A DNA stretch of 64,000 bases from Macrostomum lignano (GCA_002269645.1 NIVC01000870.1:124001-188000), one strand, 5' to 3'. Counted from the stretch's first letter, positions 4,200 through 62,300 are shown. Notes: generated from the sequence alone by a model not told the origin. Translations and numbers: made by a program.

Positions 4200-5760
4200 C
4201 TGCTGCTTTCTAGTGACGAATTGTTTAGCGTCTTCAGCAGCTCAGCATCATCGAGTCAAAATTAAGACTTGGCCGCTCTGAGATCAGCGAAGAAGACAGC
4301 GATGAAATTGTTGGTGAGAATGAGGCTTGGAGGATTTTGTAAATGAGGAAGCGGACGAACGAGCAGGGGCGCAGTTTCCAGAGTTTCTTGGAATTCTTGG
4401 TCTGACAATAGAGAACTGAGTTGCGGTCGCTGAGGTGCTGGACTTATTTGCAAAGTTTTTCACTGAGGAAATGATTACTCAGCTGATTACTCAGCCATCG
4501 CCTCCGGGTCTGTCGGGCTGGAAAAACCGCTCAGAAAGTGAAATAAAAAAGACAGCAGCCATAATTTTCTACATGGAAATCGTACGCAAGCTCGAAATCC
4601 AAATTAAACTACTGGACAACCATGCAGTATTTAGTTCCATGATAGCCAGCTGTTTTAAAGCGAGACCTATCTGTCGCAAAACAGATTATAACAGATCCTC
4701 TATAGTTTTTGAGGTTGTACGATTGCGGTAACGCTGACGCCACTGTGACAGGTTGTAAAAAATTCGGCCTTTTCTTAACAGCTTTGCTTTTGTCAAGCTT
4801 TCGTAAGAGAAACTTTATGCCAGACAGGGACATTGCGGTTGATGAGGAGCTAGTGCAGCATAAGGTTGGACTGGCTTTTAAGCAGTACATCCATGTATAT
4901 CCCGACCAAGCGTGTCACCAGGTACGGCATTAAGACCTACTGCCTCTACGACTCGAAAACCGGTTGTCTGTGGAACGTTTTAGTCCACTCCACTGCACGC
5001 TGAAGAAAACAATATGTTCGACTCAGACTTTCAAGGCTATGCTCTATCGATCAGTGAGCGCATTGTTGCTGAGCTTTCCAAAGGCCTCCTAAATGTAGGC
5101 CATAGAATAGTCGTGGATAGCTACTTCTGCTTCCATCGCCTTGCCAAGTTCCTCCTTGAACTAAGCACGTTCTGTTGACCGGCACCATTCGCTGCAACCG
5201 AGGCATCCCACCGGAGCTCATCCAGATGCCAAGGTCGACACCATCGCATTGCTGCATGCAAAGCGGTGATGTCCTGGGTGTCAAAAAGTGTCAGAGAGGA
5301 AGGCAAGCGGTGTAAAAACGCTGTACCTGTTGACACTTTCGGTACTGCGATGAGCGGATCATGAGTGAATAGAGATGATCCGCAAGCCATGGAGCATCTG
5401 GACCAGGTAAAGCAGTTCATGCAGTTCATGGAGCAGTTAATTCTGTTCATTCTGAAGTTCATGGAGCAGCTCGTTAAATCTCTGCTGAACAGCTCTGGAC
5501 CAGGTAAAAGCGGTGCATTCGTTCTGTGCATGCAGGGACCATGCAGGCCTGCGCACCCACACCTGCCCAGCAAGCTGCCTGCGACGCCTGACAACCAGCG
5601 TCTCGCCCGTCGCTGCCAGAGTATGCTATCGAAATGCGCAGGTTTCCAGCGGACGACGAAATCGCATGATGTCAAATTCTGGAAATCGACTTGGACATCG
5701 GAGCAATTCGCAAGTTGGGATTCCCAGTGTGCAGTGTGCATTTTAGTGAAAATTATTACA
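4200..5760 (+). pseudogene. Degenerate piggyBac-family transposase
   Basis: Frameshifted segments LFAKFFTEEMI, IAVDEELV..FKQYI, RIVVDSYF, TGTIRCNRGIP and HLDQ follow the order of piggyBac catalytic motifs, with a Cys-containing tail. Multiple stops and frameshifts; ends not defined. Confidence 0.85.
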
Positions 5761-6799
5761 GCTGTCCTTCAAGACCATTGAGGGCACATCAAGATCATTA
5801 GCAGGCTAAACTGACGTTTGCACACTAATGTAACTCAAGAACATAGCTTTATTTTCTTCCTTGGCAAATATAATTTCACAGTATCTAATGACAACATTTT
5901 CCCGTTTTTATGTCCTATTTAATTGTTTCACCTGCAATGCCCAAATTATTGCTTAAACGTTTGCTAATTAATAAAAATAATCATCACTCAGTATACGTGC
6001 TACCAGTAGCATTGTCATTAGCTTGCAAAAGTCAGTCAGGTAAGCTGACTGCTTTGTGAAGCCGCTGAAGGGAAACGTGTCGTATATTCATATACGTACA
6101 TTTATATGTCGCAAACAGGGACAGCTGCAATCATTAAAAATGAACACTGCACACTTGCAATCCCATCTTGCTAACGGCTCCGCGATGTCCAAGTTGATTT
6201 CCAGCATTTGCTGCCATTGACTCCATGCCAGTCTGCTGATCGCACGAAGTTTTGCTGGTGTGATGTCAGTGTGTTTGCTGGGTGAGTCTCAAAACTCGAA
6301 AGTGTAAAATCGTTTCTTTATCCGTTCTGCCTCATCCATTTAAACTCATAATTTTGGCCAAATGTGCAAATGTACAGACTTGAACAAATGTTGACTGGAT
6401 GCTGTGCATCAAATTTAAAGAAACGTCGTGACTTGAAACGAACAATACGGAAGGCAACAATGCAGACCGGGTCAGTTGAGTATGATTAAAGCAGACAAGT
6501 ACTCGTAGTACACAAAGTGTAAAACAACAAAAGAGTACACAGAGTCCAAGCAAGGGTAGGCAGGTGGAAAGACAACAGAACTTTGCTTGGAAAGTAGTGT
6601 GTGAGCTACTTAAACTTTTGGGGCTTCTTTGTAGCAGATTTCAGGTTAATGTCGGGGTCAGCTAGAATTAGGAGCCACTGTTTGACAGGGCCTAAACGAT
6701 CTTTAAGTGTCAGCAAACCTTAGAATAAAAAAGCAGAGAAAAAATGCGCATTCTTTCATGCGACCGCGGATGCTGCTGGCGGTCTCGCCGACGTATTGT

Positions 6800-9700
6800 T
6801 GAGATTCTCGGGCCTGAAAACGTCGGAGAGGTCCGGGTTTGGGCCGAGGTAGGTGAGCCTGTCCTGAGTAAAGGCGGGGCATTCACAGATGAAGTGCTCC
6901 GCATTCTCGACACCGGAGAGGCAGAAAGGGCATTCCTCACTGCGGATTTTCTCCTGGAGGTAACGATGCCTGGCAAAGCAGCCATGACCCGAGAGGACCA
7001 TGGTAACCGCCCTGATGTCCCTGCGGTTGATTCCAAGCAGGGCCCTGCGAAGGGCGGGGGAGGGACGGGACAGCCGCGCGGGATTGCCGGCTGTCGGGGG
7101 CGTTAGCCCACCTCTCCCTGTGCTTAGAAGCCACCCACTGGTTGATCCGAGTGGTGACAACAGCGATGGGGGTGGGGGCCACGGGCAGGGGACCAGTAAA
7201 AGAACCGGTCGAGCCAACCTTAGCCAGGCGATCGGCCAGCTCGTTGCCGGGGTGGCCCGAATGCCCGGGGATCCACCTTAGGGACACCTTGTTGGAGGCG
7301 CCTAAGCGGTTGAGCTGCCCGATGCAGTCGAGGACTGTACGCGATCAGGTGGTGGTGCGCTCAAGGGCGTGAATCGCCGCTTGACTGTCCGAGTGGAGGG
7401 TAATTTCCTTCCCCAGACGCGCTGATTGTACAGCTCCATGGCGCAGGAGCTGATGGCGAGAACTTCGTTCTGGAAGACGGTGGAGCAGGTGCCGGTGTGT
7501 TGGGAGAAGGTCGCCACAGTTCTCCCTCCAGACACGATGCAGTAGCCGTATCCAGAGGCGGAGTTGATTTGGGACCCGTCAGTGAAGCAGTGGATTTCAT
7601 GGGGTTTCCAGTTGTCTCTCGCTTCATGGCGTGGTGGAATGCTGGTTTTGAATTTGAGCGGGGGCAGAGCGTGGACGGGATTCCGTCCGAGAGGGTCAGC
7701 AGGCCTCTCGCTGCTTCCAGGTCTCGCAGGCTGAGGTCGCCATGCGGCCGGAGGTTCCGCTTTCTGAAGGCAAACTGCTTCTGGATTTGGACACCCGCGT
7801 CAAGCAGACGACGGGTGGTTTTCATAGCCTCCCCTCTAACAAAGAGGTCGAGGGGGGGAATGTCCAAGAAGGAGTTCATGCCAGCGAAGGGCGTTGAGGG
7901 AGCCGCGCTCATGATAGCTCGACAAGCGCGGCCTTGCACCCTATTTAAAACCTCAAGAACCCCTTTCACCTCTAGGGCACTGTTCCAAATGAAGCCGGCG
8001 AAGGAGATGGCCGGTCTAACAATGGCAGTGTAAATCCACCAGAGGCGGCGGGGGTGAGGCCCCAGGTAGCACCGAAAGCTCTGCGGATCTGCGCGAGAGT
8101 CGCGAGAGCTTTGCGGGCTTTAGTTTGGACGTGCGGGGTCCAGCTCAACCTGTGGTCGAGGGTGACGCCCAGACATCTAGTTTGTTTCTCCATGGCAACA
8201 GGTTTGCCGTAGAGGGAGAGCGGTTCGATCCTCCAGTTTCGGCGGCTGGTGAACATGATAGCCACGGTTTTAGACTCAGAGAACCTGAGACCGCAGCTAT
8301 GTGCCCAGCGCTCGGCACGGTGGATGAAGGCTTGAAGGAGGTCCCTGAGGACCGCGGGCGATGGTCCAGCCACAGTGGCGGTAACATCGTCCGCATAGCC
8401 GACCTTCTGAACAGGGTCCGGATGCGGGCTGCAAAGCAGCTCGTCCATGACTAAGTTCCAGAGGATCGGGCTGAGGACTCCACCTTGCGGTCCGCCTTTC
8501 TGGACTTCCACGGAGCGTGAGTGTCCCAGGAGGTGCGAGGTGGCAGTACGATGGGAGACCATGTACATGATCCAGCGGGTGAGGTGCTCGTGCGTGCCCC
8601 GGGATTCCAGGGCTCGCTTAAAGGCTTCAAAGAGCACATTGTTAAAAGCACCATCAATGTCGAGGAAAAGCGACAGCGCGTATCCACTGCCAAGCACGGC
8701 GCGCTCCAGCTTGTCGACAATGGCGTGCAGCGCACTTTCGATGGAACGTCCAGGACGAAAGGCGTGCTGATTAGGGGAGAGCGGGGAGTTCCTCAGCTCA
8801 ACGAGGAGAAGGCGCCAGAGCACCAGCCGTTCCATCAGTTTGAGGAAGAAGGACGTCAGACTGATAGGGCGGTAAGCTTTGGCGGAGTGATAGTCTCCCT
8901 TTCCTGGCTTGGGTATGAAGACTACCGTAGCCTCTTGCCAGGCTTTTGGCACATACCCGAGGGTAATGCTGGCCTTGAAGAGGTTGCAGAGGAGGCCGAG
9001 AAACCTGTCATTTTTAACTGCCTCATGAAGGAAGGCAGGATAAATGTTGTCAGGACCCGGGACTTGAAAGGAGAGAAGGATTTTGCGGCGCGAGCCGTCC
9101 TCTCTCTAGTAATGATGGTCGAAGCCAGGATCTGTCCGCCCGGAGAGTGGTCCGGTGGGCCTAGCTGCGGTGCGGCACGTGGGAAAGAGCTGGTGAGCAT
9201 AATGTCCAGCGATTCCCCAGGGTTCTCAGCGAGCCGGCCGTCCGGTCTTTTAATGACTGAGAGCTTTGACATTTTGTCGAGGGTGAGAGCCTTAACTACG
9301 CGCGAAGTAGGGCGGGTGCCTTCTAACTCCGCGCAGTATTGGCGCCATTTGTCGGACTTGGCTTTCCTGGTTTCACGCTTAAAGTCGCGGATCGCTTCTT
9401 GATAGGCGGCCAGGTCAGCTGGGTCCTTGCTCTTGCGAGCTTTCCGTTGGAGGCACTTTGCCTTGCGCCGGAGGGATCCGAGCGCCGGGTGCCACCAGGG
9501 GCGGATTTTTTGCCTTTGTAGGCTTTAAGAGGACAGGAAGCCTCATGGGCTGTCAGGACGGTCTTGCTGAGCAAGTCTGCAAGGTCATCCACTTCCTGAC
9601 AGGTGGTTGGAGCGACGGTAGTCAGCTGATCTGTCTGGCATTTCAGGGTTTCCGTGAAAGCCGTCCAATCAGTGTTCCGGACGTTCCTTTTCCACAGAAT

Positions 9701-10400
9701 GTGAGGCTTGGGGCAAGAGGATTGCAAACGAAAACGAACGAAGCGATGGTCAGACAGAGACTCCTCTTCGTCCCACACCTCCCAGTCCTTGACTAAAGGA
9801 GCCAAGCCATGGGAGACGAGGGTAACGTCGAGGGCCTCCGTCCATCGCCCGTTGTCAAAGGTGGGGGTTCCACCAATGTTGCAAAACTCAGTGTTGGTGG
9901 TGCAGATGTAAGCAAGGAGTTCCTCGCCTCTGCTATTGGAAGTATTACTGCCCCAGTGGGTGTGGTGAGCGTTGATGTCGCCCGCCACCAGCAGCTCGAA
10001 CCTACGGTTAGAGCAGTAGTCCACGAGGGAGGTGAGGTTGGGTGGAACCGCGGGGCCATCGCCAGGGATATAGATCGAGGCGATGATGACCGTGCGGTTG
10101 GTGATAATGTGGTTGGACTGAATGACACAGAGGTCTCTGTCAGAGAGGTCCGGTCTGTGCCAAGCTTTGAGGTGGGTAGATACGAAAATGGCTGCTCTGG
10201 GGTTTTGGGGGTCTTGAAAACAGTCAAAACCAGCAGGAATATTCGGAATCTTACCTTTCTTTGTCCAGGGCTCCTGGAGTAGGATGATGCCCGGTTTCGC
10301 AAAGTTTGCCACCCGCATCAGGTTGGTCGAGGCCGCGATGCAGTGGTGCAGGTTAGCTGCAGGATGTCCACTCCGGGAATTCCACGAGTGGTCCGCGCAG
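6800..10400 (-). pseudogene. LINE ORF2 (AP endonuclease, reverse transcriptase, RNase H, CCHC)
   Basis: LLQEPW, AGDINAHHTHWG and SDHRFV (APE); YRPISL, PQGGVLSP and YADD (RT); TVFQNEVLAI and [19 protein letters not shown] (RNase H); CPFC..ENAEHFICEC. Split across at least 6 ORFs. Confidence 0.92.
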
Positions 10401-11029
10401 CTTCCTGCCGGCTCAAGGCGAGTTGTGCAGGAGAGCTGCCTCTTCTGCCTCGCCGATAGCTCCAGGCTCCAGCTCCATGGGCTCCTCCCGGATGGATTCC
10501 ATGGTCGAGGGAGAGGTCGCCACCTGGGCGGCATTCTCGCTCTCGGCCCGGTTTTCCGGGGGGCCGCAGTGGTGACACTGGGCTGGGGGTGGCTGCGGTT
10601 GGGGGCCTTGGCGGTGTCCAGCAGCTGCTTCGCGCGCTGAGTCAGACCAGAGCGGATAGTGTTCCGGGCGGGTTTCCGGCCCTTTCCACGTCCGCCTGTT
10701 GCTGCAGCTTTCGCGGCTTTCCCTCTGACAGGGTCCACGTCCTCGGAGGGGTCGTGACGACCGGGAGCTTCTTTTCCTGGGCGTTTCCGCCCGGCAGAGC
10801 CCCCGACTGCCCGCTTACGCTTCTCCGGGGGCGGTGGGCGGGTGGCGTCAGACTCAAAGCTAAAGAGCTGAATCTGCAACAGCCCGACAGAGATGATGGA
10901 CATGTCCGGGTAGCGGAGCATCCAGCTATCCGACAGTCCAAGAATAGCCGTGAAACCGTCTCCGCCCGGCTTGGAGATGGTCTCGTGAACTACGACACCG
11001 TTGGCCGGTAGCTCCGGGTTGGAAGCCAC

Positions 11030-23078: not shown

Positions 23079-26000
23079 CTACGCACAGTCGACCAATGTA
23101 TGTAAAATAGGGAGAATGCAGGAACGATTTTTGAGACTTACAAGCATCGCTTTACCATAGAAATCAGTCCATCGTACAGTTACGAGTGAGTTGCTTAAAG
23201 TATTGACAACGGAAATGTGCAGAGACATTGAGTCGAAAGTTTCGTCGTAGAGGGCGGTTTGCTGAATAAATTTCTTGCCAACGAAAATACAACCGACATC
23301 AGTAGAAATTATATGAGTGACTACAACTGCAAATCCATCTCGAGTTAAAATATAGCAGTCTGGATTAGCAACAGATATATACGTTCCACGCAATACAAGA
23401 CTAACTTTACGGTAAATACCAAATGTCTGAACTCCTTGCAATGAGAAGTCTACATTCGAAGATGCAATTGGACCGGAATATTCAAAAGGCGACTGAATAG
23501 AACACATGTGCTTAGGAAAAAAACCGAGAGTCACATCTCTCTCCAGAATTCGCTTCACAGTCTGCTCGAGAGCAAAACGTGGACTGCGAACAAACTGGGT
23601 AATAAAGCGGATAAAATTTTCGCCCCAAAAGCAACTAAAACTATCCAACGGACCACGTCGACGAACTTCTGAAGGAATATGAATTATTGAATGCACAGTG
23701 TACACGATAAACTCGTCACCCCAAATAATTGCACATTCATTAACAATGTGCTTTGCCAAATCTTCGGCATAAGAGCAGTACGTTTGACAAACCAAAGGAT
23801 GCGACAATAGGAAAACAAACGAATGCAGAGAAAGAAATAATTGATACACAGATTCAGGGACGTTTCCAGCTAAAACAATTGGCGCCAAGTACAAAATAAA
23901 CAATCTAAACTCAGTTGCCTTCCAAAGACCCACGCACTCAATCGACCGTGGCTTTCGTGCAAAATCATGCGGAATGCAAGACGAAATAGAACACAGATCA
24001 GCACTTATCTGACGAATATTAGGTCCAGATGCTCGATGGGGCAAGCGTCCCTTACCGAGGAATTTTAAACATTTAGGAACAATACCCTCGTATATTAAGT
24101 GCATTGGATCCAGAGGAAAATCATGAACCATGTCGATGGGCAAACTTAAAAAAGGGCTTGGTAGAAGAACATGATTTGGGTATACATCACCTCTGAAGCC
24201 AAAGTCAGTTCGTAGTGCAGCACTTAGGTCAGAAAATGTCACTCTTCCATTACAAAAGTCCCCTTCAACAGTGCACTTGTCGCAACCAAAGTATCCCCAA
24301 CATGCTTTTGTTCCTTTTACAAAGCTGCGTGCTGGTGAATCGCAGGTAATCATTGAAAGTTTAAAAGGTAATATGAGATCTGACTCTGAAGTGACAGTAG
24401 AGACAAATCCATCAGCCATCAAATCACGCAATTCAGTAATACAGTCGGCAAGAAAGTCCGAAGCAGAGAGGGGTTTGCCAGTTCCATAGTAAAGCCCGAT
24501 TATAAAAACAGAATGAGACAAATTCGAAACTCTACCCAACACAGGCCACAATGTATAGGTAGTGCTATTGTGCACTTTTGCACCATCAACAAAAAGGTGG
24601 AGGTTCAAGGAATCCAGACGAGAGCGTGATCCAATATTGCTCAGGAGAAAGTCAAGACCAGCTTTAACGCCAAAATGATAATATCGCCCTGGGTTGACAT
24701 AGCGAAAAGTAAGCTCCCTTGGTGTAGTCATTAGTCCACGATAGTCAGCAGCTAGACCAGGAAACTCGTCTTGTAGATTCTGAAGCAAGTAGTTCACGCA
24801 CGGCACTTCTGGGCCTGTTGCTTTAACCCAGTCTCGAAGCATGGCCTCGAGTCTCGCACATTGGTTGTCATCAGAATGAAGGGCTGATTCAATCGTTGAA
24901 GAAGTCAGGTTTCCTAAATGTAAGAAATAAATAGCTAGAGTATTATCAAAAACTATTAAAAAGATTATGCACATACTTGTTGATAAAATCACATTTTTAC
25001 TCTAAATTTTTGTTTAACTTTCAAAGTTACAGAAAAAATTTAAGTTAATTTATTTGTAAAGCAGAAATGAATAATGGATGGTGTAAGGTTCATATTCAGT
25101 TTAGAGGATCAAGCACACTAAGATGTCAATAAAAAGTGTTGAAAGCAATTAGGGGTTATTATAAAAAATAGATACATTCAATCTTACCAACATCATCACT
25201 AGTCATCTCCTGGTATTCAAGTTCCATTTGAGACTCTTCTGTGGGCTCAGGAGCAGCATGAATTCCAAGCTCTGCCATAGGCTCAGTTGGCTGTTGACTT
25301 GGATCTTCAGTGTGACATGGGCAATGCAGCATAACTGCAGCTTCCTCGTAGCTTCTCTTAATATGTCGTTGGACTGTTCGCTTACTGGCTCCATGAACAG
25401 ATGTTGAGGAAAAACCTAGACAAATTATAGAGAAATGGATGAAATGAAAGCCTCATAATTACGCCAGCATAATGAAGCCTTCTATGCCTTCAATACCTTG
25501 AGCAAGACCTAGCAAGAAACTGTCAGAGTATCAAGATCATACCCTTGATAATGAGTACTCAACATAAGTATATGCTTATTGCAACATATATATAATATAA
25601 ATTATAGCAAAAAATATGTTTATATTACAAATCTAATATACAATCCACAAATTTCCTAAAACTTGCATCTTGTGCTTTAAAGAAAATAATAATTGTTTAA
25701 CAACATTGCAAGCTTTATTTTCTCCAAACAGAAGCATTATAGATAAAAAAATTTACTCAAAGTTTTGCCAAAAGCAAAAATAAATCAAGTTGACAATTAT
25801 CATTATGAACAAATCCCAAATACACTAAATTCATCATTTAGCATAGCAAACATTTTTATAGGCAAGGTTTGATTTAGGGTCTAATATAGTAGAACTAAAA
25901 CTAATAAATATAATAAATAATAAAACTAATATAGGGTCTTTAGGAGCATATATAAAAATTAACAAATTAGGTTGAATACAAATAGCCAGCATTATATACT

Positions 26001-38680: not shown

Positions 38681-40141
38681 CTGAAAGCAGAAAATACAAA
38701 CCAAATGACTAATCATCATTCAGTTATACTAAAAATAGAACTATCTACCAACCTATGTATCTATTTATACGAATTTTGGCTTTACTTGACATTGTGTGAA
38801 CCGATTTTTTTCAAACTTGCACTATTAGATCCGAAATTTTTCCGTGGGGGTACATGTATCGTGGCTAAGAAATTGGTCAATGCTAAAAAGATAATAAGGT
38901 AAAAAGAAAAACTTTTTTGCAAAGGTCAAGTAGCCCTTTCCACGAGAAATGCATTGTAAGAATTATAGAGAAAAAACTGACTGACTGAATTCTGATTCTG
39001 ACAAACATTGCATCATACTAAGCATTTTATTCATTGTAAGCGTCTAAAAAGGTATAAAAAACATTTCACACACAAAAAGCTGAAAAGACTGAGACCTAGT
39101 AAAACTAGGTCTTGTATAATCTAGTATAACAAATTTTTAAAGAATAATATATTATAAGTTTTATTCGTTTATGTGGTCTAATGTATAATACGTTCTAATA
39201 CGTTCCCCAATGTATCGATATTCAATCCCAAAACTATAATTGTCACGAAAGGTAGATCGCTGCCACCAATCGAAGCTATGAAGCCGAGACCGCTATCAAA
39301 GAGATTTGAATGAAGTGAGTTAGAACTTGAGCTTAAATTGAACAGTAACTTAACGAACTATCAAATGTAATTAATAAACGATAAATTAACAAATATTGGA
39401 ACTAGCGCACCAGCAGAAAATGATAATTAACCTTAACAAAATCAATAGACAAAACACAAAGATAAGCTCGGCCTCCTGTGTCCTTACTAACACAGTCTGT
39501 TAGAGCTAAGATTTAGTTCACTAAGCTAACTAAGTACTTAGGAGCCGTGCTCAACTAAGACTCAACATTTGCTAATAACTAACCATGAACTAGTTAATCA
39601 GGCACACTAGGCCGATCTTACAAAGTCAATCACTATCGGGAGCACATAGTCCGGGCTAAGTTGCAAACTCGGGCAACCAGAGGAGAGCAAGCCTCATTCA
39701 AATTGGTGCACGCGGTATTTATATGCCCGCCGAATGAGTGCATTAAAACAACAGATGGGCCTCCTGGCACAAAAATACGTTAACCTAATCGTTTTCGCAT
39801 GTGCAAGAGCTTTCAGTGAATTAATGGCGCACGTTAGTAAACTCCCTTGATTCATTGAATAATTAGTAATAAATAGTCGTAATCAATCACTTCACGTAAT
39901 AAACGACAGTAGAATGCATGAGGGGGCTTCTGGGACAAAATTTTTCACCTCCTCCATAATCCCATTAAATCCATCCATATTATCCCTGACAGAATCAGAA
40001 AAAAAGGGGGGTCGCACTTGCTCCGAAAACTTCGAACATAATCCTCCCAAATCCATCCATATTATCCCCGACAGAATCGGAGCATAACAGATGTCGTACT
40101 CGCTCCGAAAACTTCGAACATAATCCCCCTAAATCCATCCA

Positions 40142-40240
40142 AGTAGTAGTATGTTATAAGGGGCTGCGCCACACTTATTGCTCGGGCGCATTGGGTGCCA
40201 GCTCGCTGGATGACTCAGCCCCTTATAACATACTACTACT
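40142..40240. repeat. Perfect 25-bp inverted repeat with AGTAGTAGT...ACTACTACT ends
   Basis: AGTAGTAGTATGTTATAAGGGGCTG (40142-40166) and CAGCCCCTTATAACATACTACTACT (40216-40240), with a 49-nt spacer. Confidence 0.9.
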
Positions 40241-40305
40241 ACCAGGAGGTCAGAGTTGCAAGTGTGTGTGATAAGTATGAAAATATAAAATATACATAAA
40301 TATGT

Positions 40306-40431
40306 GAGTGAGGGTGTTGAGGGTGAGGGCATGTGGGGGGCATTAGCATGTGGAATATTTCACAGAACACATTTTCCGGAATTTTTATACTTTTAAAAAA
40401 GGAGGGTGCCCTCACCCTCATGCCCTCACTC
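40306..40431. repeat. Second, imperfect inverted repeat (about 25-bp arms)
   Basis: GAGTGAGGGTGTTGAGGGTGAGGGCA versus TGCCCTCACCCTCATGCCCTCACTC. Confidence 0.75.
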
Positions 40432-40661
40432 ATTTTGAAAATCACTAAAAATAAGTGAAAAATGACTAAAAACAGGTGAAAATGGTCTGAAAACAGCGAT
40501 TTTTTGTGATTTTCAAAAATTTTGAAAAAGTGCAATTTTCACGATTCCAGCTCTAAAACCATGAGAAAAGTTGGATTCACGGGTCAATTCAATGCAATTT
40601 CAGGTATATACAATTTGAAAGTATCATCCAATTTAACGATAGTAAATTTTATATATATAAA

Positions 40662-42900
40662 ATGGCCTTCAGTAAACCATTATTTCTAGGAAACGCTTTA
40701 GATATTCAGTCAGCTATAACAAAACTACCACCCATCTTCTCCACAGGAAAATATCCTGGCGAATTTCATATTCCAGGGTATTCTTTTGCAGGTTACGCAG
40801 TGGCCTGAGTGAGGAAGCCAATGTCCTTGCTAGTCATCGAATAAGCACTTGTTAAATTTTCTAAAGTAAAAATGGAGCAAACAATTCGAAAAATTCTACT
40901 GAAACCAATTGATGATAAGGTTGGGCATGATCAAATTCTTCATGATCTTTTTCAAGAAGAGTTAATAATTTCACACAAGATTAAAGTTATACAAATGAGA
41001 CTAGGCAGACTATATGAAATTTTAGCAGAAAATTATTTTGGATTCGAGAAGGTAATAAAGATAGACTTGGTTCACGTTGAGCGAAAGATTGCATTAGAGC
41101 TTAAATCTTCTGATAATACGGACAATTCATCAAGTCGTGAAAGGAATTATCAGAAACTAATAGACTATAAAAATTCTTATCCCACCTACCAGTTGTATTA
41201 TGCGTGCATCAATAAAACTACAAAGGAACCTAAGAATATTTTACTAGACAATGGAATCACCCTTATAACAGGAGAATTTGCATTGAAACTTCTTTATGGG
41301 GATCAATACAAAAAGATTATAACCAACATTAAACAAGTGCTTAGTGATTGGCGACACCTTCAAATTGCGGGAACTCCGTCCGATTCTAGTACGTCAACAA
41401 CAGTCTCAAGTACCACTTCAGTTGAGAAATCTTCTGAAGGAACACAGGTAATTCCTGTTCCCATTCGGACTTTGTCCGCGAACCTATGGTTCGATGGTAA
41501 CAAGCTTGAGGACATGGTGGAAATCCGCAGCCAAGCTCCTAAGTCCGAACGAAGTTGACAAGGATATGGAGAAGGTTCAGAGACTTAATGGGGGTGGGGC
41601 TGAAGGATCTGGTCAATCCTGATGAAGCCTTAAGATAAAGTCCAGCCTCTCTCGAAATATTGAGGAACAACTGCCTGGTACAAATTTAGACAAAAGACTC
41701 AATCCAATTACAGACAGGCCTCGGTATGATAGTCTACCAATTAACCCAATCGATTGGACTGCTTACTATCATGACAAAAGCTATAGAGATGCTGAAAAGA
41801 CGTCTTCAACTCCAGAGGAAGCCCTAGCAAAGAAGCACATTGCTGATGATAAAATGATTGCTGATTTAGATGCTATTTCAACCAGTGACTTGTCTGTGAA
41901 AGAGAGACTCATTCGAAATCTAGTAAAGCGTATTACCAAGGCTAAAGTTCGGTTTGGATTAGGCATTCATACTCACAACCCTAACAATTGTATAGACTGT
42001 CTAACCATATACGGCAATGGTCTTAGCTATGAAGATGCTTTGAAATTGCATAAAGAATATCGAAAGCCAAGAGTATTTAGAAAAATGATTCACTATGCAA
42101 AAGACACAATTTGGCATGCAGATATCATTATCCTTCCTCCTGAAAGAGGTTACAAATATGCTCTCACTATCATAGATGGTTTTACACGTTACGCTTGGGC
42201 AGTTCCTTTGAAAACAAAGACGGGAGCAGAAGTTGCAGAAGCTTTCCAAAAAGTATTTAAGGAATCAGGAAGACGATCAGAGAGACTTTGTGTAGATGAA
42301 GGCAAGGAGTTTTATAATCAGCATATGTACAAGCTATACTCGTTTTCAAAAGACAACATTAGAAAGAAAGATGAAAATGGGGAGTATATTAACAAGATGT
42401 TCTCAATTTATGGTGAGTCTAAGAATGCAATGATTGAGAGGTTCAATCGTACTCTCACAAATAAACTCTGGTTTGAATTTGATCTACAAGGAAACCAGAA
42501 GTGGCTCCACATATTTCCAGCTATTGTTGAAAAATACAACAACACAATCCATTCTGAGATTCTGATAACTCCTTCAGAAGCATCTAAACATCCTGAGCGA
42601 GTACCAAAGCCTTCCTTCGAGTATTCAAATGGGAAACCAAACTTCAAAGTAGGTGACAAAGTTCATATCTATAGATACAAGGAGCACTTTGAAAAGGGTC
42701 GAAGAGGTTATTGGAAAATTTCAGAAGTGTTTAGGATAAAGAAAATAGTTTATTCAAATCCCATAACCTACATTATTGAGGATGAGAATGGAGAAGAAAT
42801 TATTGGATCATTTTACAAATCCCAGCTTTTACCAGCAAATTCTCCAACTAAAAATGAGCGCCTATCGAACAAACTGCAAACGGGCAAAAGGTCAGATTGA
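40662..42900 (+). CDS. Phospholipase A2 (parvovirus-type)-retroviral-like integrase fusion, join(40662..40793,41674..42900), about 452 aa
   Basis: Exon 1 ends EFHIPGYSFAG and exon 2 starts PGTNLDKRL, followed by PINPIDWTAYYHDKSY and KHIADDKMI. Integrase triad WHAD, VDEGKEF, IERFNRTL; C-terminal FKVGDKV and YIIEDENGEEIIGSFY. Exon 2 is in frame with the 41854 ORF (offset 180 nt). Confidence 0.9.
40794..41673 (+). ncRNA. Group I self-splicing intron (IC1-like core), 880 nt
   Basis: The 5' exon ends in U and the intron ends in omega-G. P1: CAGGU/GCCUG with U-G at the splice site. P element AAATTGCGGGAA 41362, Q AATCCGCAGC 41522, R GTTCAGAGACTTAAT 41575, S AAGATAAAGTCC 41632. P3, P4, P6a, P7, P8 and P9 helices can all pair. 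Confidence 0.9.
40872..41558 (+). CDS. Intron-encoded putative PD-(D/E)xK endonuclease (Eco47II-like), 228 aa; C-terminal tail overlaps the ribozyme core
   Basis: IDL...ELKSSDNTDNSSS fits a D...ExK active site and resembles the ExKNxxNTxNS signature I recall for Eco47II-like restriction endonucleases. Located between P1 and P3. Confidence 0.6.
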   Translation: MEQTIRKILLKPIDDKVGHDQILHDLFQEELIISHKIKVIQMRLGRLYEILAENYFGFEKVIKIDLVHVERKIALELKSSDNTDNSSSRERNYQKLIDYKNSYPTYQLYYACINKTTKEPKNILLDNGITLITGEFALKLLYGDQYKKIITNIKQVLSDWRHLQIAGTPSDSSTSTTVSSTTSVEKSSEGTQVIPVPIRTLSANLWFDGNKLEDMVEIRSQAPKSERS

Positions 42901-43276
42901 AACGTCAGATTCACAACTACTAGCTGATAAAGAGGGTGAAGGAATTGGTGATATGATCAGTGGTGTCACAAACTTTTTATCAAATCATGGAAGTAAAATT
43001 GTGAGTGGAGCTGATGCAATAGGTAAAACAGCTACCACAGCGAAAAACATATTTGATGCGAAGAAATCATACAGTGACATGTCTAAAGCAGGTGAGGAAC
43101 TGGAATATATTAAAAAGAAACGTAGAGATAAAGAAGCAAAGAAAAGAATGGAAAAAGAGCAACAGATAGCTTCTCAATCAAATAAGGCTATTCAAGATAT
43201 TGTTAAAAAGGCTCTAGGGTCAGCAGAACAGCCTCAAGTGTCTTTGAGACAAGGCAATGGTTTGAAGAAATTCTGA
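42854..43276 (+). CDS. Small basic Polinton/adintovirus-type protein with GxG motifs (putative core protein), about 140 aa
   Basis: Open ORF overlapping the integrase end, with EGEGIGD and QGNGL motifs and a Lys-rich coil. Confidence 0.6.
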   Translation: MSAYRTNCKRAKGQIETSDSQLLADKEGEGIGDMISGVTNFLSNHGSKIVSGADAIGKTATTAKNIFDAKKSYSDMSKAGEELEYIKKKRRDKEAKKRMEKEQQIASQSNKAIQDIVKKALGSAEQPQVSLRQGNGLKKF

Positions 43277-43284
43277 CCTTAAAA

Positions 43285-43737
43285 ATGAGCGAGAAAAACA
43301 CTGAAGCAAGACTCAATCGATATGTTCGAGAGGGAAAACCAAGATATGTTACTGTAAATAAACAAAAGCAGTATCTTTCTAAAGAGAAGATTCGAGAATT
43401 GCAAGAGAAACAGAAAGAACATGAAGGTGGAATAATTCCTCTATTAGGCTTACTACCAGCAATTTTGGGTGGTATCGGAGCAGCCTCCGGAGTTGGTACA
43501 ATGATTGCAAAAAGTGTTAATACAGCCAACAATGCTAAGCATAATAAGACAATAGAAAGCATTGAACGGCAAAAACTAGAAGAGTTGAAAAAGGCTCAAG
43601 GGAGTGGAGTATTAGTTGATGCGGCTAAAAGAGTCGAACAAGTACCCAGCGAAGCAGTCGAGTGGCTGCTAAAGACTTTTAAAGTTGAAAAGGAGAAACA
43701 GGGTAATGGGATAATTCTTAGACCTCACGAAGCTTAG
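43285..43737 (+). CDS. Small Polinton/adintovirus-type protein with an amphipathic GG(I/F)xP segment (putative membrane-active virion protein), 150 aa
   Basis: EGGIIPLLGLLPAILGGIGAASGVG hydrophobic Gly-rich stretch; QGSG and QGNG motifs. Confidence 0.6.
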   Translation: MSEKNTEARLNRYVREGKPRYVTVNKQKQYLSKEKIRELQEKQKEHEGGIIPLLGLLPAILGGIGAASGVGTMIAKSVNTANNAKHNKTIESIERQKLEELKKAQGSGVLVDAAKRVEQVPSEAVEWLLKTFKVEKEKQGNGIILRPHEA

Positions 43738-46700
43738 TTGAAATTACAATACTAATATTACCAAATTATACACAAGCAACTACATATCAGTATTGTTCCA
43801 TTGCACAGTCAGGCGTCCGCAGTCAAATCACAGTAGTCAACAGTAGTGAGTCTACCCGATTCCTTCTCATGGAAGAAGAATTGGAAGCAGCCAGCACCTA
43901 GGGCTTGTACAGCCAGGGTGTATTCACCTTCACAAGCCGTGACATGCTCGGGGTACATATATCCTGGAGGCGGCCGCGCAAAGACCCCATTCTTGAACGC
44001 TGCAAAGAGAGAAGATGCAGCCCATTACTACCTGATCAGCCTCTTAATAAACAAAAAGCCCAATAATTGCTTACCGTCTCTGACATATTGCAAAGCCAAA
44101 AATATTAGAATATTATGCGTCGGCAACTACTCGGCACCATGTGCTGAAGCACTAGATTTTGTGCTGAGATGCTTGAAAAGGAGTTCGCGGAACTCTTGCA
44201 GCTGCCCTCCAAGTCGGTCAGCGCCGTGCTTCAGCTGCTGTTGGACTGTGCGGCTCGCCGCGTCCATCGAGGCATCAGCTGGCTGGCCGTCCTCATAGCC
44301 GGTGCCGTACATGCGCGTGCAGGCCACTGGAGATTGAAATTTATCAAGATTATTAAGATTTATTGACGTTGCACAGTTGGAAACATCTTGCTGTTTATCT
44401 GGATTGCTAGAAACTATTATCTGTTAAATTCCAAAGTGTCGAGATTTGGTCTGATGTCTACCCTAGACACTCAAAATTGCGGGAAATTGTCCAAAATTGC
44501 AATCTGATTGTAAGGATTGGGCAATTATTGCAAATTGATTGCAAGTCATTTGCAGGTTTTGACAAGCTGATTGCCAATTTAATTGCAATCTTGGCAATCC
44601 GTCCTAAGAGTAGAAAACAAATGAGATGTTTTCGATCTGTTTGATATTATAAAAAATGGTCGATAGGAACAGCTAATTGATTCTTCTTTTAACCTGCCCT
44701 AGCTTGTAATTTTCTTCGGCATATCGCCTTTGTAATTCGCGATCAGAGGGCATTATGTAAAATAAAGTTATGGACCACCTTTTGTTTGTCGTCCAAAAGT
44801 CATCTCGAAGAGTATATCTGGCGCCGCCTGTACCCGAACAATGCATTCGGCGCCGTGCTTTACTGGGCTTCCGTGTATTACCCTGTTTAAGTGACTCGGC
44901 AACTTCAACTGACTGTTTTTCTGACTTGTGACACTTAAGCGATGCACTCTTCGAGATGACTCTCGAAGAGTGCATCGCTTGTACCGTGCATTGCGCGCAG
45001 GCGCCTCTTGGCAAGGGCCCAGGTGCCCTCGATGCGGTTTGTGTTGTGCTTTGTGTTTGCATGCGCGAGACAGTTGATTAGGTGGGACAATAAATGTCGG
45101 GGCAGCTGGGCGGCCGGCCATTGTGCAGATTAAGCTGAAAGGGTTGTGGTTCGGGTACAGATGCAGAATATGCTATGTAAATGCAAAAAAACACATGAAA
45201 ATAATATCGCGAAGTAAAGTAGAACTATGAAATAATATCGCGAAGTAAACTAGAACTATGCCTCAATGTGAAAAAGCAAGATTTATTAGTCATTAGTCAT
45301 TGTAGATTAGTTTTACCTCATGTTAACTGAGGAGAGAGCGCTTCTTCTTCTAGCATCTTCAATGCCTTATCGGCATACTTAATTATTAAGCGCCGTCGAA
45401 ACAGCGAGATGCCGCAACGATTTAGAATAGGGTGAGTGTTGCTGAGTCTACCCACCTGGATTAAGAAATTCCTCCAAACCGGCTTTATCGAAGCTTCATG
45501 GCAAACTCTCTATATTCCTCAGCAAACAGTACGAGCTTAATGCGGATCAGAATTTTTCCAGCCTTTATTCCACATAGAAGTTCTTGATTTTGCAGTTCGT
45601 TTAGTATTTTGTCGATGTTGTTAAGCTCATTCACAACATCCAGAATGGCGTGCCTTCCAGAGGCAAACTCCACAACCGGCAAGCAAATCACGGAGTAAGT
45701 TGACAGCCTCATTGATGTGCTTTAACTTCTTTCGTTTGTTAATTCATTCTACTCTACTAGTGATAGATGGTATATTAATCACATGCTCATTAAATCGCCT
45801 CGCAACTTTGTTAAATTCCTCTATCCATCACTTCGGCCGCTTCATGTCATCACTCTCGCACATCCTATTTACTAGATAAACCAAATGGCTTGGCTCCGTA
45901 GGAGCGAATAGTGGCCTGTTCTCAGATAGATTATATATTTAATTTTAAAATGTCTAAAGCGTCTTACTCATCGTCACTCATTGGTTGTGGTGCGTGGTGC
46001 ATTAGCAGCTGCCAGCTTCTTGTTTAGCGACTGCCTGCTCTCGATTGGCTTCATCCGTTGTTCTCGCGTTGTGTGGTTGACTTGCTGGCCTGTCTCTCAG
46101 TGTATGGTGGTGGGTCTGCATAAATTTCGCCTGTTTCGCCAGTTAAAAAATTTGCAAAGCTAAGGTTTTAGCCTCAAATGCTAGTAATGAATTAATCGCA
46201 GATTTTTTGCGGCTAAATATTGTTTTAGGTAAGACAACAGGCGCTCTTCGGTGGTGAAAACATGGAAAACGTAGATGGTTTCGATCTGTTCCATGTTAGA
46301 AAAAATGGTCTTTGGGAACAGAAGATCGATTTTTCTTTTAATCTGCGTTAGCATTGAGTTTGCTTCAGCATATTGCCCTCGTATTTAGTTTTTGTCTGCC
46401 TGCCGGCGAATGAAATACCTATATATGTGTGGGGAGACTTCTAGAAACTTCTAAAACTTCTAGAAGAATTTATTGCTAAACAATAGCTGACTCGCAACTC
46501 ATACCTCCGCCACACCTATGTATAATTAAGCATGTCTGTCTGTCTACCCTTTTAGCTTGCGTGTATCTGTAATGTGGCACATTTTCGTCTATTTTTAGTA
46601 AAATAAAGATAGACTAGAGATTTGAAGTTGAAGACTTTCTAACTTTTCATTTGGTTCTCTTATTGTATGTCTTGCCTCTTTATTCAGCGTTACCTCTTAG

Positions 46701-51889: not shown

Positions 51890-53142
51890 CAGGGTGCGTC
51901 AAAAGTCCTGCAACAACACATATTATGGGCCACCTATGGTATGCTAAAAGATATTAGGTTGAAATTTTACAGAGATGTTGGTGGACCTGTCAGTGTCTAT
52001 GGCACAAAGTATCACTCAATGTAGCCGCCCCTGTTGCGAATGACAGCACGAAGACGACGTCTCACGACGTCTCGCAGCGAGTCCAAACTCCTGTGGGGAG
52101 TAGCACAGGCCTTGGCCTCCAGAACCCCCCAGACACAGAAGTGCATGGGGTTCAGGTCAGGGGAATACGACGGCCATTCTTCTTTGGCGATCAGCCGGAT
52201 CCCATGCTGCTGAAACCACTCCTGTGTGGCTCGAGCGGTGTGGGCAGGGGCACCATCCTGCTGGAAGGTCCAGACCTGGTTCCTGAACACTTCGCGATTC
52301 ATTCGAAGAATTTCTGTCTCTAGAATCAGTTCTCGATAGGATTCAGCGCGGATTTTGACACCCTCAGGCACAAAAACGAGATTTGTGCGACTGTTGCTGC
52401 TGATTCCGGCCCAGACCATCACTGAAGATGGGCGCTGAAACCGGTCAGCAAAGCGATGCTCTAGCTGGACAGCAGAGGCACTTGGGGCCAGAAACCTGTC
52501 GATTTGGCGGTTCAGCGCTCGCTCAACGTTGCAAATTTTCTCATCTGTCCACAGGATGAAGTCCTCATGGTCAGCGATGTGCTCGGACAGGAGAAGACGA
52601 GATCGCTCAACCCTGGTGGCCATAACATCAGCAGTCAGGTGATGAGCTGGGGTTTTTTTGAGCGATTGCAGTCCCAGGTCTTCATGAACGATGCGCTGGA
52701 CCGTGGCCTGGCTCAGTTCGTGCTCCTTTGCCATTTGGCGCATCGAGCGTTCAGGATTGCGCTCAATCTTCTGGGCAATTTTCTTTTTCAGTTCTGGAGT
52801 CCTAGCAGTTGCAGGTCAGCCAGACCGAGACCTGTCCTCCAATGTTCCAGTGTCCTCCCATAGGCTGATGGTGCGGATGACCGTTGATCGGTGCAGGTTC
52901 TCATGAGACAGGGTGGCAATAATTTCTGCCGTTGACTTGCCTGCCTGATGCAAATCAACAATCGCAGCACGTCGGCAATTCATTGATTAGATTGGCTGAA
53001 AGGTACAATTTGTCAAGTTTTATAGCACATTTATAGGATGCATAGTATTGTTCATAAGTTCCAATAAAGCCATATAAATAGTCCATGTATATCAAAAGTT
53101 ATAGATCAATATATTTTGTTGCAGGAATTTTGATGCACCCTG
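51890..53142 (-). mobile_element. Tc1/mariner element of the maT (DD37D) group, 1253 bp
   Basis: TIRs CAGGGTGC(G/A)TCAAAA(G/T)TCCTGCAACA of about 26 bp; TA at 51888-51889 and 53143-53144. Confidence 0.93.
52012..52983 (-). pseudogene. maT transposase pseudogene
   Basis: ATG at 52983 and in-frame TGA at 52816-52818. WTDEK, FQQDGAPAH and SPDLNPMH show 37-residue spacing with the third Asp replaced by His. The C-terminus appears shortened. Confidence 0.9.
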
Positions 53143-59330: not shown

Positions 59331-62300
59331 GCACTGCGTCCTCGTACTCGTCTTCACTTTCTGAGTCATTGTACACATTCGGCTGACTATTAGCTAACTG
59401 TTCCCTATTGTATTGTTTCCTCTGCTCTTTTGGCTTAGTACTCGCTTCTTCTTCCGATAATCTGCTTGCGGTACTTTCATTAAATTATCCCTATGCATAA
59501 TAAGTTCTTCCTTTCTAGCCTTCTTATTTTTGGTAACTGGTCTAATCTTAAAGACTACTTCTGATAATTGTTCTACAATTTCGTAAACTGCCCTTTGTTT
59601 TCTGTGAAATTTGTTAGCCTCTGTGTTAGCAATTACTGGATTATTAATAAATACTAAGCTTCCTACAGGCAATGTTTTCGGCTTAGGCTTATTAGAGTAC
59701 TCCTGCTCACGGTTTTGTTGCACTAATTTTAATCTCTTTCTTGCTAGTTCTTGGCCTTCCTGCAGATTCTGCTGATGTTTCTGGACATAAGATGGCAGGT
59801 CCTGAAACTGCTTTGGCTCGTTCAGCTCATTGTCACAGGGCATTCTGGCCTCTCGTCCAAAGACTAAATAGTGCGGACTAAATCCTGTGGCAGTGTGCGT
59901 GCTGGTTCTCAGAGCTGTTATGCAACCTGGCAACAGAACGTCCCAGTTGGAATGCTCCTTCTCCAGTAAACAGGTGAGAATTGATTTAATCTGCTTATTA
60001 AGGTTTTCTACTAAGCCATTGCTCTGCGGATGATAACTAGTTGTTCGAGTGTGTCTAATGCCATAGAGGTCTAAAAATTTCTTAAAGGCCCTACCAGTGA
60101 ACTGTGTTCCCTGGTCTGTGTGAATCCATTGTGGAATCCCAAAATCAGCGAAAACTCGTTCTTGTAGAATTTTGATAACTGTTTTAGCCTTCTGATTCCT
60201 AATTGCGAATGCGAATGGAAATTTGCTAGTGCTGTCTATGACTGAAAGTACATATTTGTTTCCTGATTTGCTAGTTTGGCCAATAGGTCCTATTAGATCT
60301 ATGTGCAATCTACCGAACGGTTCGACTACAGGATAGTTCTGAATTGGTGCCTTAATTCTTCGTCTAGTTTTGCTTTCTAGGCATGATTTACATTTGGCTA
60401 CGTAGCGTTCAACTGCTGTTGCTAATCCTGGCCTCCAAAATCGAATTTTAATTCTCTGATAAGTTTTATCTCGACCTAGGTGTCCCGCTAACGGTGAATC
60501 ATGGAATTGGTGAAAGACTTCACTATCCAGAGACTTGGGCAACACTACCTTTGGATCAGTCTGCCCCATAGATAAGTCTACTTTGAGTACGCCGTCCTCA
60601 ATTCTGAGCAACTCATAGTAACCTAAGAGGTTCCTACAGTCGTGGGTTAACTCTAGTCGTTCTTGAAATGTCGGTTTAGGCGAGTCATTCTCAATTAAAT
60701 TTCTAACAAAGCCTACCGCCGGATCGGCTAGCTGTGCTGCGATCAATTGGTCACGGCGAACTGGGCTACGGAGATAGTCACTGAGCAGGGCATTGCATGC
60801 AGGTGGATTTCCGGTTTTAGGCTCCTGTCCCTGTCTATTGTCTAGCCTACTGCTACTAAAGATCGGAGTATTGTGTCGGTTCGTGACAGTGTCTTGTGAC
60901 GAACAGCATGACGGAACTCCACTGCTCGAGCTACAGGTTTCAGCTAACGCGGAATTGCCTGAGCTGACAGTACAAGCTGATGCTGGGTCTGTATTCACAG
61001 TTGCCCTACAGCTTAGCGACCTGGCATGTGGGGACATCTCTTCCGGTTGAGGATCAGGGATCCTGGATAGAGCGTCAGCATTCACATGTTTAGGGCCACT
61101 CCTATGTTCTATCTCAAAATCAAATTCGGAAAGTCTTTCGATCCAACGACCTAAAATGCCTGTCTGTTCGGTTTGGCGAAGCAACCAGGTTAGGGCATTG
61201 TGATCAGTGCGCACCTTAAAATGTTTTCCTACGAGGTAAAATCTAAAGTACTTCAGCGAGTCAACAATCGCTAGAAGCTCCTTCCTCGTAATTGGATATC
61301 TAGTTTCTGACTGCCTCATCTTCCGACTATAATACGCGATCGGTCTTTCTATGCCGTCGCTCTGAACTTGATTCAAGACCGCCCCAATTCTGACATCTGA
61401 TGCATCAGTGTCTAACACAAAATAAACTTGGGGGTCTGTATTGAACTCTGGGTAAGCAAGCACTTCTTCGGAACACATCCGTTCCTTCAACAGTTCGAAG
61501 CATTCATCATGAATCCTGGTCCATTTGTCCTGGATACACTTGATGTTCTTCTTGGTCAACTCACAGAGTGGTGCTGCTACCTCGGCAAAATCTCTAACGA
61601 ATTTTCTATAGTAATTACAGAGTCCGAGAAAACTTCGAAGCTCTGTCACAGATTTAGGTTTCGGCCAGTTCCTAATTGCTTCTAATTTTGACGCATCTCT
61701 CTTAATTCCTGTTTTGCCTATGACGTGTCCTAGATATTGTAATTCTGATTTGAAAAGGTGACATTTCTTAGCCTTTAGTTTCATGTTACGACTCGTAGCT
61801 TGTATTAGTCTCTTGAGCACTTCTTTCAGGTGTTCTAAATGCGATTCAAAGTCTGCACTATAAACTATTACATCGTCTAAGTAAGCTATGGCGAACTTCT
61901 GTGCAATGTCCTTAAGAACTAAGTTCATGCACCTTTGAAAAGTTCCTGGAGCTCCTTGCAATCCCATTGGCAAACTTCGTACTCAAACGAGCCTCGATGT
62001 AAGGTTGGAAAGCTAGTCTTGCACTTATCTTCTTCCCTAAGAGCTATCTGATAATATCCCGAAAATAGATCTAACGTAGAGAATTGACTGGCTCCATGGA
62101 GACATGAAAATGTTTCATTGATATTAGTTATTGGATACGGAAAGTACTCCGATTTATTGTTTAGTGCTCGATAGTCGTTAACTAATCTCAGCGAACCGTC
62201 TTTCTTAGGTACTATGACTAATGGAGTCGAGTACTGCGAGTAACTAGGCCTAATTATGCCTCTAGCCAACATGAGATCCAACTGCTCATCTACCTCCTTA

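Follow-up and report, generated by a model that had tools for sequence, protein, structure and literature searches.

A Polinton-like virus (PLV) integrated in the genome of Macrostomum lignano carries, nested in a group I intron, the gene of a restriction-type nuclease whose predicted 5-bp site, GGNCC, is absent from the family-shared DNA of intron-bearing copies. The reading that we favour, with a probability of about 0.7, is that this short-site restriction enzyme acts both as a weapon and as the driver of intron homing, site avoidance and the intron taking the place of methylation. At slightly better than even odds, the system would amount to restriction without modification: an animal virus encodes a 5-bp enzyme, has erased the site genome-wide and keeps an intron as antidote at a single indispensable site. 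The original prediction, according to which a restriction fold had been co-opted for homing or as a weapon, is supported by the protein family, the fold and the site depletion, and the two roles probably belong to one activity.

A Polinton-like virus with a split PLA2-integrase gene

The window, i.e., the whole stretch of 64,000 nucleotides that was analysed, contains only the left 3.6 kb of the element. This copy stops at 43745, just before the capsid gene, and matches a full-length copy at 96.1% over 3608 nt. Its features are the following:

40142..40718, no strand: left terminal inverted repeat (TIR), starting with AGTAGTAG; matches the right end of a full-length copy at 93.6% (581 nt)
40662..40793, plus strand: exon 1 of the PLA2-integrase gene, 44 codons, the last being the Gly codon GGT
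40794..41673, plus strand: group I intron of 880 nt (Rfam RF00028), limits set by 14 intron-less loci
40872..41558, plus strand: intron-nested nuclease ORF of 228 aa; residues 1-166 form the nuclease domain and 167-228 a disordered tail
41064..41105, plus strand: codons of the predicted catalytic D65...E76-x-K78, from conservation among homologues
41354..41664, plus strand: ribozyme core P3-P9 with a long P5 extension, from the Rfam match and the core elements located
41674..42900, plus strand: exon 2 of the PLA2-integrase gene, 408 codons, the first being the Pro codon CCT
42782..43745, plus strand: two further small element ORFs (ORF calls)

Full copies are about 17.8 kb long and bounded by inverted repeats, one of them showing a 6-bp target-site duplication. 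Pfam searches with 14 ORFs of this family (family A) identified a double-jelly-roll (DJR) capsid, an A32 ATPase, a D5 primase-helicase and an endonuclease VII domain. The DJR capsid, A32 ATPase, integrase, TIRs and target duplication make the carrier a PLV. Neither a protein-primed PolB nor an adenain protease had a Pfam match in family A; PF03175 matches occur near the ATPase genes of a second family (family B, see below). As in alpha adintoviruses, for which PLA2X genes are described (PMC8502044), a parvovirus-like PLA2 is found in an animal element. The host genome contains many Wnt genes and plain 76-aa ubiquitin repeats, which identify the host as an animal; a rhizarian host was also considered and is ruled out by the same features. 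A protein recorded under Macrostomum lignano is identical to the capsid of the element.

Some structural details of these elements deserve mention. Each TIR opens with a near-perfect hairpin of about 100 nt bounded by AGTAGTAG and CTACTACT (40142-40240 in the window; both ends in loci L052/L053), and three imperfect repeats of about 70 nt abut the left end of the element in the window (39960-40141). Locus L053 carries two adjacent ORFs on the minus strand (4569-5921 and 6170-7636), one with an IRGG motif, known from B-family polymerases, and the other with an endonuclease VII domain; the pair, which has no Pfam polymerase match, is possibly a split or unusual polymerase. Other mobile elements of the window include a LINE-type endonuclease (9323-10921), a 631-aa ORF with a weak DUF4218 match (23079-24974), a DDE_3 transposase (52012-52743) and an LTR-type RT-RNaseH-integrase ORF (59394-61967).

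RF00028 is the sole Rfam family found in the whole window (85.2 bits for a cut-off of 50, 41285-41664, model positions 1-253). The limits of the intron were set at 40794 and 41673 because the exons abut in natural intron-less copies: at 40793|40794 and 41673|41674 they join with a gap of 0 in 14 of 40 loci of the same genome. The 44 and 408 codons add up to 452, the length of the natural intron-less protein, and removal of the intron restores the frame, which otherwise meets a stop five codons inside the intron. This natural protein matches Phospholip_A2_4 (35.4 bits) and rve (39.5 bits) in Pfam; exon 2 alone, which encodes the rest of the PLA2 and the integrase, reaches 39.9 bits for rve and 16 bits for Phospholip_A2_4. 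The intron thus lies between the Gly and Pro codons of a loop of the parvovirus-like PLA2, and the U of the exon 1 Gly codon GGT is the partner in the U.G pair of P1 at the 5' splice site. The internal guide of the intron is GGCCUG (40802-40807) and its terminal G is at 41673; P3, P4 and Q of the core were located at 41354, 41362 and 41522, and the segment 41378-41518 has a folding z of -2.3. By the P/Q/R/S consensus, the subgroup is probably IC1-like.

The intron is predicted to be self-splicing, the reading frame being restored in the RNA. None of the sequencing runs listed as containing the sequence is recorded as RNA, and contigs came from four runs presumed to be RNA. Two of their joints correspond to the allele that lacks the intron in DNA; in a further contig, of depth 3, exon 1 is joined exactly, but this could equally be a GGT-type intron-less allele. 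Such contigs cannot tell spliced RNA from intron-less DNA; none was therefore counted as splicing.

A genome-wide search with one pattern retrieved 136 intron-bearing and 28 intron-less junctions, so that an animal's nuclear assembly holds at least 136 group I intron junctions. The review PMC3984707 lists group I introns in bacteria, phages, viruses, organelles and the nuclear rDNA of fungi, plants and algae; from animals, it lists them in the mitochondria of early-branching lineages only. In PLV genes, RF00028 introns are described from three protist groups only, with 309-376 bp in the described case and no nuclease annotated in the main text (PMC12220804). The present intron differs in having an animal host and a nuclease ORF.

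A restriction-type nuclease nested in the intron

It had been predicted that an intact 228-aa ORF sits between P1 and P3 and runs into the ribozyme core, and that it has a D...ELK motif but none of the LAGLIDADG, GIY-YIG, HNH or His-Cys motifs. The coordinates, the fold of P1 and P2 upstream of the ORF start and the core positions agree with the first point, the last 65 codons or so reading through the core. As to the second, the ORF, which contains IDLVHVERKIALELKSSDNTDNSSS, has no LAGLIDADG, GIY, YIG, HxH or CxxC string. Among aligned homologues that have any residue at the position, D65 is found in 154/158, E76 in 155/162 and K78 in 158/160, and all three are intact in the window copy.

Two suggested checks, a profile search and a structure comparison, both point to restriction enzymes. 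The ORF scores 26.2 bits for RE_Eco47II (PF09553), marginally above the cut-off of 25.9, most close homologues scoring below it. The structure model is confident for residues 1-166 (pLDDT <50 for 167-228), and its top Foldseek rows are EcoO109I (E 1.4e-4) and AvaII (9e-4), with DdmD between the two. With VIA, EcoO109I is the only row above 8 (Z 9.7, rmsd 4.1, 167 aligned), the next reaching 6.4. Family match and modelled fold together confirm the assignment of the predicted protein to the Eco47II-family PD-(D/E)xK nucleases, of restriction type. A search of solved structures with an alignment of the family (A1) gave no match below E 0.18, and NCBIfam and PHROGs gave none for the ORF; ESM Atlas returned unnamed viral clusters at 0.93-0.94, with HinfI and ApaLI on a minority of members, which are leads only.

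EcoO109I cuts RGGNCCY and AvaII cuts GGWCC. GGNCC is given as the site of an Eco47II homologue (PMC10305163). The nuclease described here shares with Eco47II-family enzymes, EcoO109I and AvaII the Pfam match, the D...ExK site, the fold and the predicted GGNCC core. It differs from the Eco47II family in size (about 165 aa versus 235-270), in having no methyltransferase partner found and in being encoded by a eukaryotic virus, inside a group I intron or next to one; with a plasmid member of the family it has only a local match of 47 residues, 34% identical. No DNA_methylase match was obtained among the 14 family-A ORFs, family B being covered in 8-kb parts. With no methyltransferase detected, the nuclease would work like a restriction enzyme but not as part of a restriction-modification (R-M) system. 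R-M systems have been suggested in Polinton-like viruses (10.64898/2026.10.13.758929).

The nuclease ORF is under purifying selection: dN/dS is 0.16-0.33 within family A, including 0.16-0.19 between copies that are 96% identical, and about 0.1 against family B, where dS is near saturation. Among the family-A introns, 17/26 retain an open frame of at least 214 aa with the motif and 9/26 have a broken or missing ORF. The start of the ORF lies in the same A-rich context as that of other element genes, which suggests that the nuclease may be expressed on its own.

Loss of GGNCC and distribution of the intron

The claim that 40140-43740 contains no GGNCC is borne out by the count, 0 for 3.1-4.7 expected, which is weak on this stretch alone since CGNCG is also at 0. 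The proposed extension to full-length copies is far more telling: a full intron-bearing copy has 0 GGNCC for 12.2 expected in 17.1 kb, the strongest depletion among the 136 comparable two-plus-two motifs, and GGNCC ranks 1 in all five intron-bearing copies tested. Related words occur there at normal frequency (GGCC 18 for 16.8 expected; GGNNCC 17 for 16.9), and the W and S forms of the site are both absent (GGWCC 0 for 6.1; GGSCC 0 for 6.3). The host DNA of the window contains 140 GGNCC for 150.6 expected, i.e., about 2.3 sites per kb. Across 15 intron-bearing loci no GGNCC occurs in about 155 kb of family-shared DNA, and the 30 sites counted over 14 intron-less loci include the 14 junctions, 29 of the 30 being GGSCC; the copies being near-identical, these counts are not independent trials.

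Two layers feed this depletion, codon choice and the exclusion of Gly-Pro. When codons are shuffled with the proteins fixed, the mean is 7.0 sites, and 0/2000 shuffles reach the observed zero. At the protein level, Gly-Pro is absent from 4471 residues for 6.7 expected (zero in 8/2000). For example, the Walker A of the element ATPase reads G-A-T-N-A-G-K-T, that of a control family G-P-T-N-A-G-K-T. GGNCC counts are ordinary in 14 pPolB loci used as controls, none of which has an Rfam intron (e.g., 10 for 11.9 expected, 16 for 12.1 and 20 for 17.1), but these loci belong to a different kind of Polinton, 13/14 are GC-richer and their Gly-Pro is also low (13 for 25.8 expected).

It should be emphasized that a Gly-Pro codon pair always spells GGNCC, so that the site in the PLA2 gene cannot vanish by silent change. 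The match between site and junction is therefore forced by the Gly-Pro codons and looks less like coincidence than like mechanism. The insertion had been claimed to split a GGNCC in an intron-less allele reading GCA GGTCC TGGT. The split itself stands, the exons abutting as Gly|Pro in natural intron-less copies, and GGNCC is present at 28/28 intron-less junctions, as forced by the search pattern and by any Gly-Pro codon pair. The expected letters do not, as the usual allele has GGCCC: 19/28 junctions read ACT GGC|CCA GGT and only 4/28 have GGT|CC. These 28 include three pattern matches (C672 type) that look non-element, one of which, L136, has 8 GGNCC for 8.9 expected.

Most surviving junctions are GGSCC (24/28), though GGC represents only 22/180 Gly codons in family A, a bias that may reflect a preference of the enzyme for GGWCC. 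Copies that lack the intron and keep an unbroken site still exist, six of them having identical integrase DNA. They have multiplied recently, mostly as GGSCC, a form that may be cut more weakly. A search of the genome gave 64 matches and, of the 40 loci examined, 26 have the intron and 14 lack it. An integrase tree of 28 copies shows five changes of intron status, three of them forced by starred branches, and a capsid tree of 22 copies shows three. Such scatter can also stem from ordinary recombination. One copy (L035, G000:C1464) has a 723-nt intron with a repetitive interior and no nuclease ORF, and in another (L025, G000:C1874) an intron-less gene is preceded by a 5' fragment that has the intron; their exon ends resemble family B, and some family-B copies carry the family-A ending.

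Family B is distant from family A (ATPase 32% and capsid 29% identical), and the exon flanks of the intron differ between the two. Its nuclease, 62% identical, is a free-standing gene directly upstream of PLA2 and outside the intron, which has about 300-330 nt and no ORF. Of 18 loci, 11 score for this intron, at the same Gly|Pro site. Every nuclease-bearing locus with a PLA2 gene (13/13) has the intron, as do 10/12 of those without the nuclease, one of the two exceptions having been chosen for being intron-less. GGNCC is missing from 17/19 family-B loci of 8 kb; of the others, one has only its intron-less junction and one is mostly non-element. Depletion tracks the clade and not the gene, copies lacking the intron, and family-B copies lacking the nuclease, being depleted too, which fits clade-wide pressure from nuclease-bearing relatives or an outside enzyme. 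None of the copies examined has both the nuclease and an intact GGNCC.

In the slot upstream of PLA2, the family-B nuclease alternates with a gene whose endonuclease VII/HNH-like product has a zinc finger at its N-terminus (L137:3022-3588) and may be a second homing enzyme for the region. In another family-B copy (L096:7073-7855, minus strand), with no PLA2 match in the stretch, an ORF resembles adenovirus protein X (Pfam 22.6 bits, under the cut-off).

Proposed homing by a short-site enzyme and alternative explanations

By definition, homing endonucleases recognise long targets and so spare the host. The nuclease described here is, like them, encoded in or beside a mobile intron, and its predicted target lies at the insertion site in a conserved gene. 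The genome-wide loss of a 5-bp site suggests that it kept a short site, so that weapon and homing are probably one activity, and it is probably not a long-site homing enzyme. In the scenario that we propose, the nuclease would still recognise the short GGNCC, members of its family being paired, in giant viruses and bacteria, with a C5 methyltransferase that it would do without. The absence of GGNCC would protect the carrier virus, and the one site not removable by silent change, the PLA2 Gly-Pro, would be split by the intron, the frame being restored in the RNA. An intron-less relative replicating beside a nuclease-bearing element would be cut once, at the insertion point; cleavage as G^GNCC would place the cuts astride this point, and the relative would acquire the intron when repaired on the intron-bearing template. 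Unpurged DNA, such as that of other Polintons, of a co-infecting virus or of the host chromosomes, would suffer many cuts. A 5-bp cutter would thus become, through site avoidance, a single-site homing enzyme, and homing within the virus clade would force all relatives to purge GGNCC. With about 2.3 sites per kb in the host, expression in the nucleus would be destructive; the gene would be silent while integrated and active only during lytic or extranuclear replication. The nuclease would have acted first from a free-standing gene beside an ORF-less intron, as in family B, the precursor stage expected of the nested arrangement, and would then have entered the intron, as in family A.

The nuclease could also be mainly lytic, degrading host or helper-virus DNA, the intron being a domesticated shield of the Gly-Pro site and homing a side effect. 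Chlorovirus enzymes degrade host DNA, and exclusion of rivals was proposed as the role of marseillevirus systems (PMC7253447). Moreover, GGNCC is frequent in host DNA, and the intron persists in the 10/12 nuclease-less family-B PLA2 loci as a shield would. However, the gene behaves as homing genes do, having moved into the intron that occupies its target and being broken or lost in many copies, and the sharing of the family-B slot with the endonuclease VII/HNH-like gene indicates that the nuclease is dispensable. This alternative, which we consider unlikely, is compatible with our preferred reading and differs from it in what selection maintains.

A little less likely still, avoidance could have been imposed by a co-infecting giant virus with a GGNCC R-M system, the ORF being a long-site homing endonuclease of the I-Ssp6803I kind. 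Giant viruses indeed carry a related pair: distant relatives of the nuclease are free-standing genes in 10 giant-virus loci (38-52 bits to PF09553), and 7/7 tested neighbours in these loci are C5 methyltransferases. An outside enzyme would also account for depletion in gene-less copies, and a long site would solve host toxicity, since known homing enzymes use long sites that spare the host (PMC3943268). However, the structure model contains only a compact nuclease domain with no extra DNA-binding part, the motif after the catalytic lysine is common to the intron ORF and to the methyltransferase-paired relatives, no examined copy combines the nuclease with an intact site, and the nuclease serves two families with differing exon flanks.

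The giant-virus loci, when pooled, have 12 GGNCC for 17.8 expected (rank 31 of 136), which is uninformative on specificity. At the Rfam gathering score no intron was found in the 10 loci, a score at which degenerate introns are also missed in 3/4 loci of the M. lignano genome. Plasmid relatives of the giant-virus pair (H1, H27) adjoin genes annotated 'Eco47II family restriction endonuclease'. The methyltransferases beside the nuclease have a Rho_N-like N-terminus in three loci (L044, L046, L049), and in one homologue (P0029) a methyltransferase is fused to the nuclease. A quick tree with 86 rows places the intron-type proteins within a group of 35 rows (SH-aLRT 95) that is separate from the giant-virus pairs and not nested among them.

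That the ORF is a dead or repurposed relic (e.g., a splicing helper), with depletion inherited from an active ancestor, could explain the broken ORFs (9/26) but is very improbable given the intact catalytic residues of the window copy, the dN/dS of 0.16-0.19 between closely related copies and the fact that AT-rich DNA should regain sites by drift, when the 155 kb have none.

A short-site enzyme that is both weapon and homing driver has partial counterparts in several known systems. The I-Ssp6803I family also combines a restriction-type catalytic motif with a group I intron; I-Ssp6803I is a tetramer that resembles PvuII and has a 23-bp site (PMC3384342), whereas for the present enzyme the data favour a 5-bp site that avoidance has rendered unique. 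Its absence from both fold lists is no evidence of a difference. In phages, collaborative homing involves a free-standing endonuclease beside an ORF-less intron and was proposed as the precursor of composite mobile introns (PMC3984707). Family B would represent this free-standing stage and family A the nested one, at the same site; here, a single animal genome contains both stages, with a restriction-derived enzyme, and the change would have gone from B to A. Chloroviruses and marseilleviruses are, as proposed here, eukaryotic DNA viruses using a short-site nuclease as a weapon, but they protect themselves by methylation (PMC7253447), here apparently replaced by site loss and the intron. A full-text literature search, most subscription papers lying outside its scope, retrieved no report of this system, including in the accessible text of PMC11296320, 10.1101/2023.08.22.554363 and PMC3671162.

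If this reading is true, a short-site enzyme homing by means of its carrier's site erasure would be a new solution and a bridge between restriction and homing enzymes. Side by side, the two families illustrate a route by which mobile introns were proposed to arise, one with the nuclease gene free-standing and the other with it nested, and precursor as well as composite forms of mobile group I introns would be placed in an animal nuclear genome. Strict avoidance implies that integrated elements meet as replicating DNA, away from the host chromosomes or at their cost, and it bears on whether animal Polintons are active viruses.

Among close homologues of the nuclease, 10/14 end in tails that, judged by eye, resemble the same ribozyme read-through, and a metagenome scan gave one 1.3-kb locus, whose intron likewise splits the Gly|Pro codons. 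When viral contigs were scanned with the PLA2-integrase and with alignments of PLA2 and of the capsid, no related whole element from outside this genome appeared. Eleven metagenomic capsid homologues of unknown context (P0183-P0193) contain no Gly-Pro for 10.3 expected and 16 Pro-Gly, hinting at avoidance across the clade.
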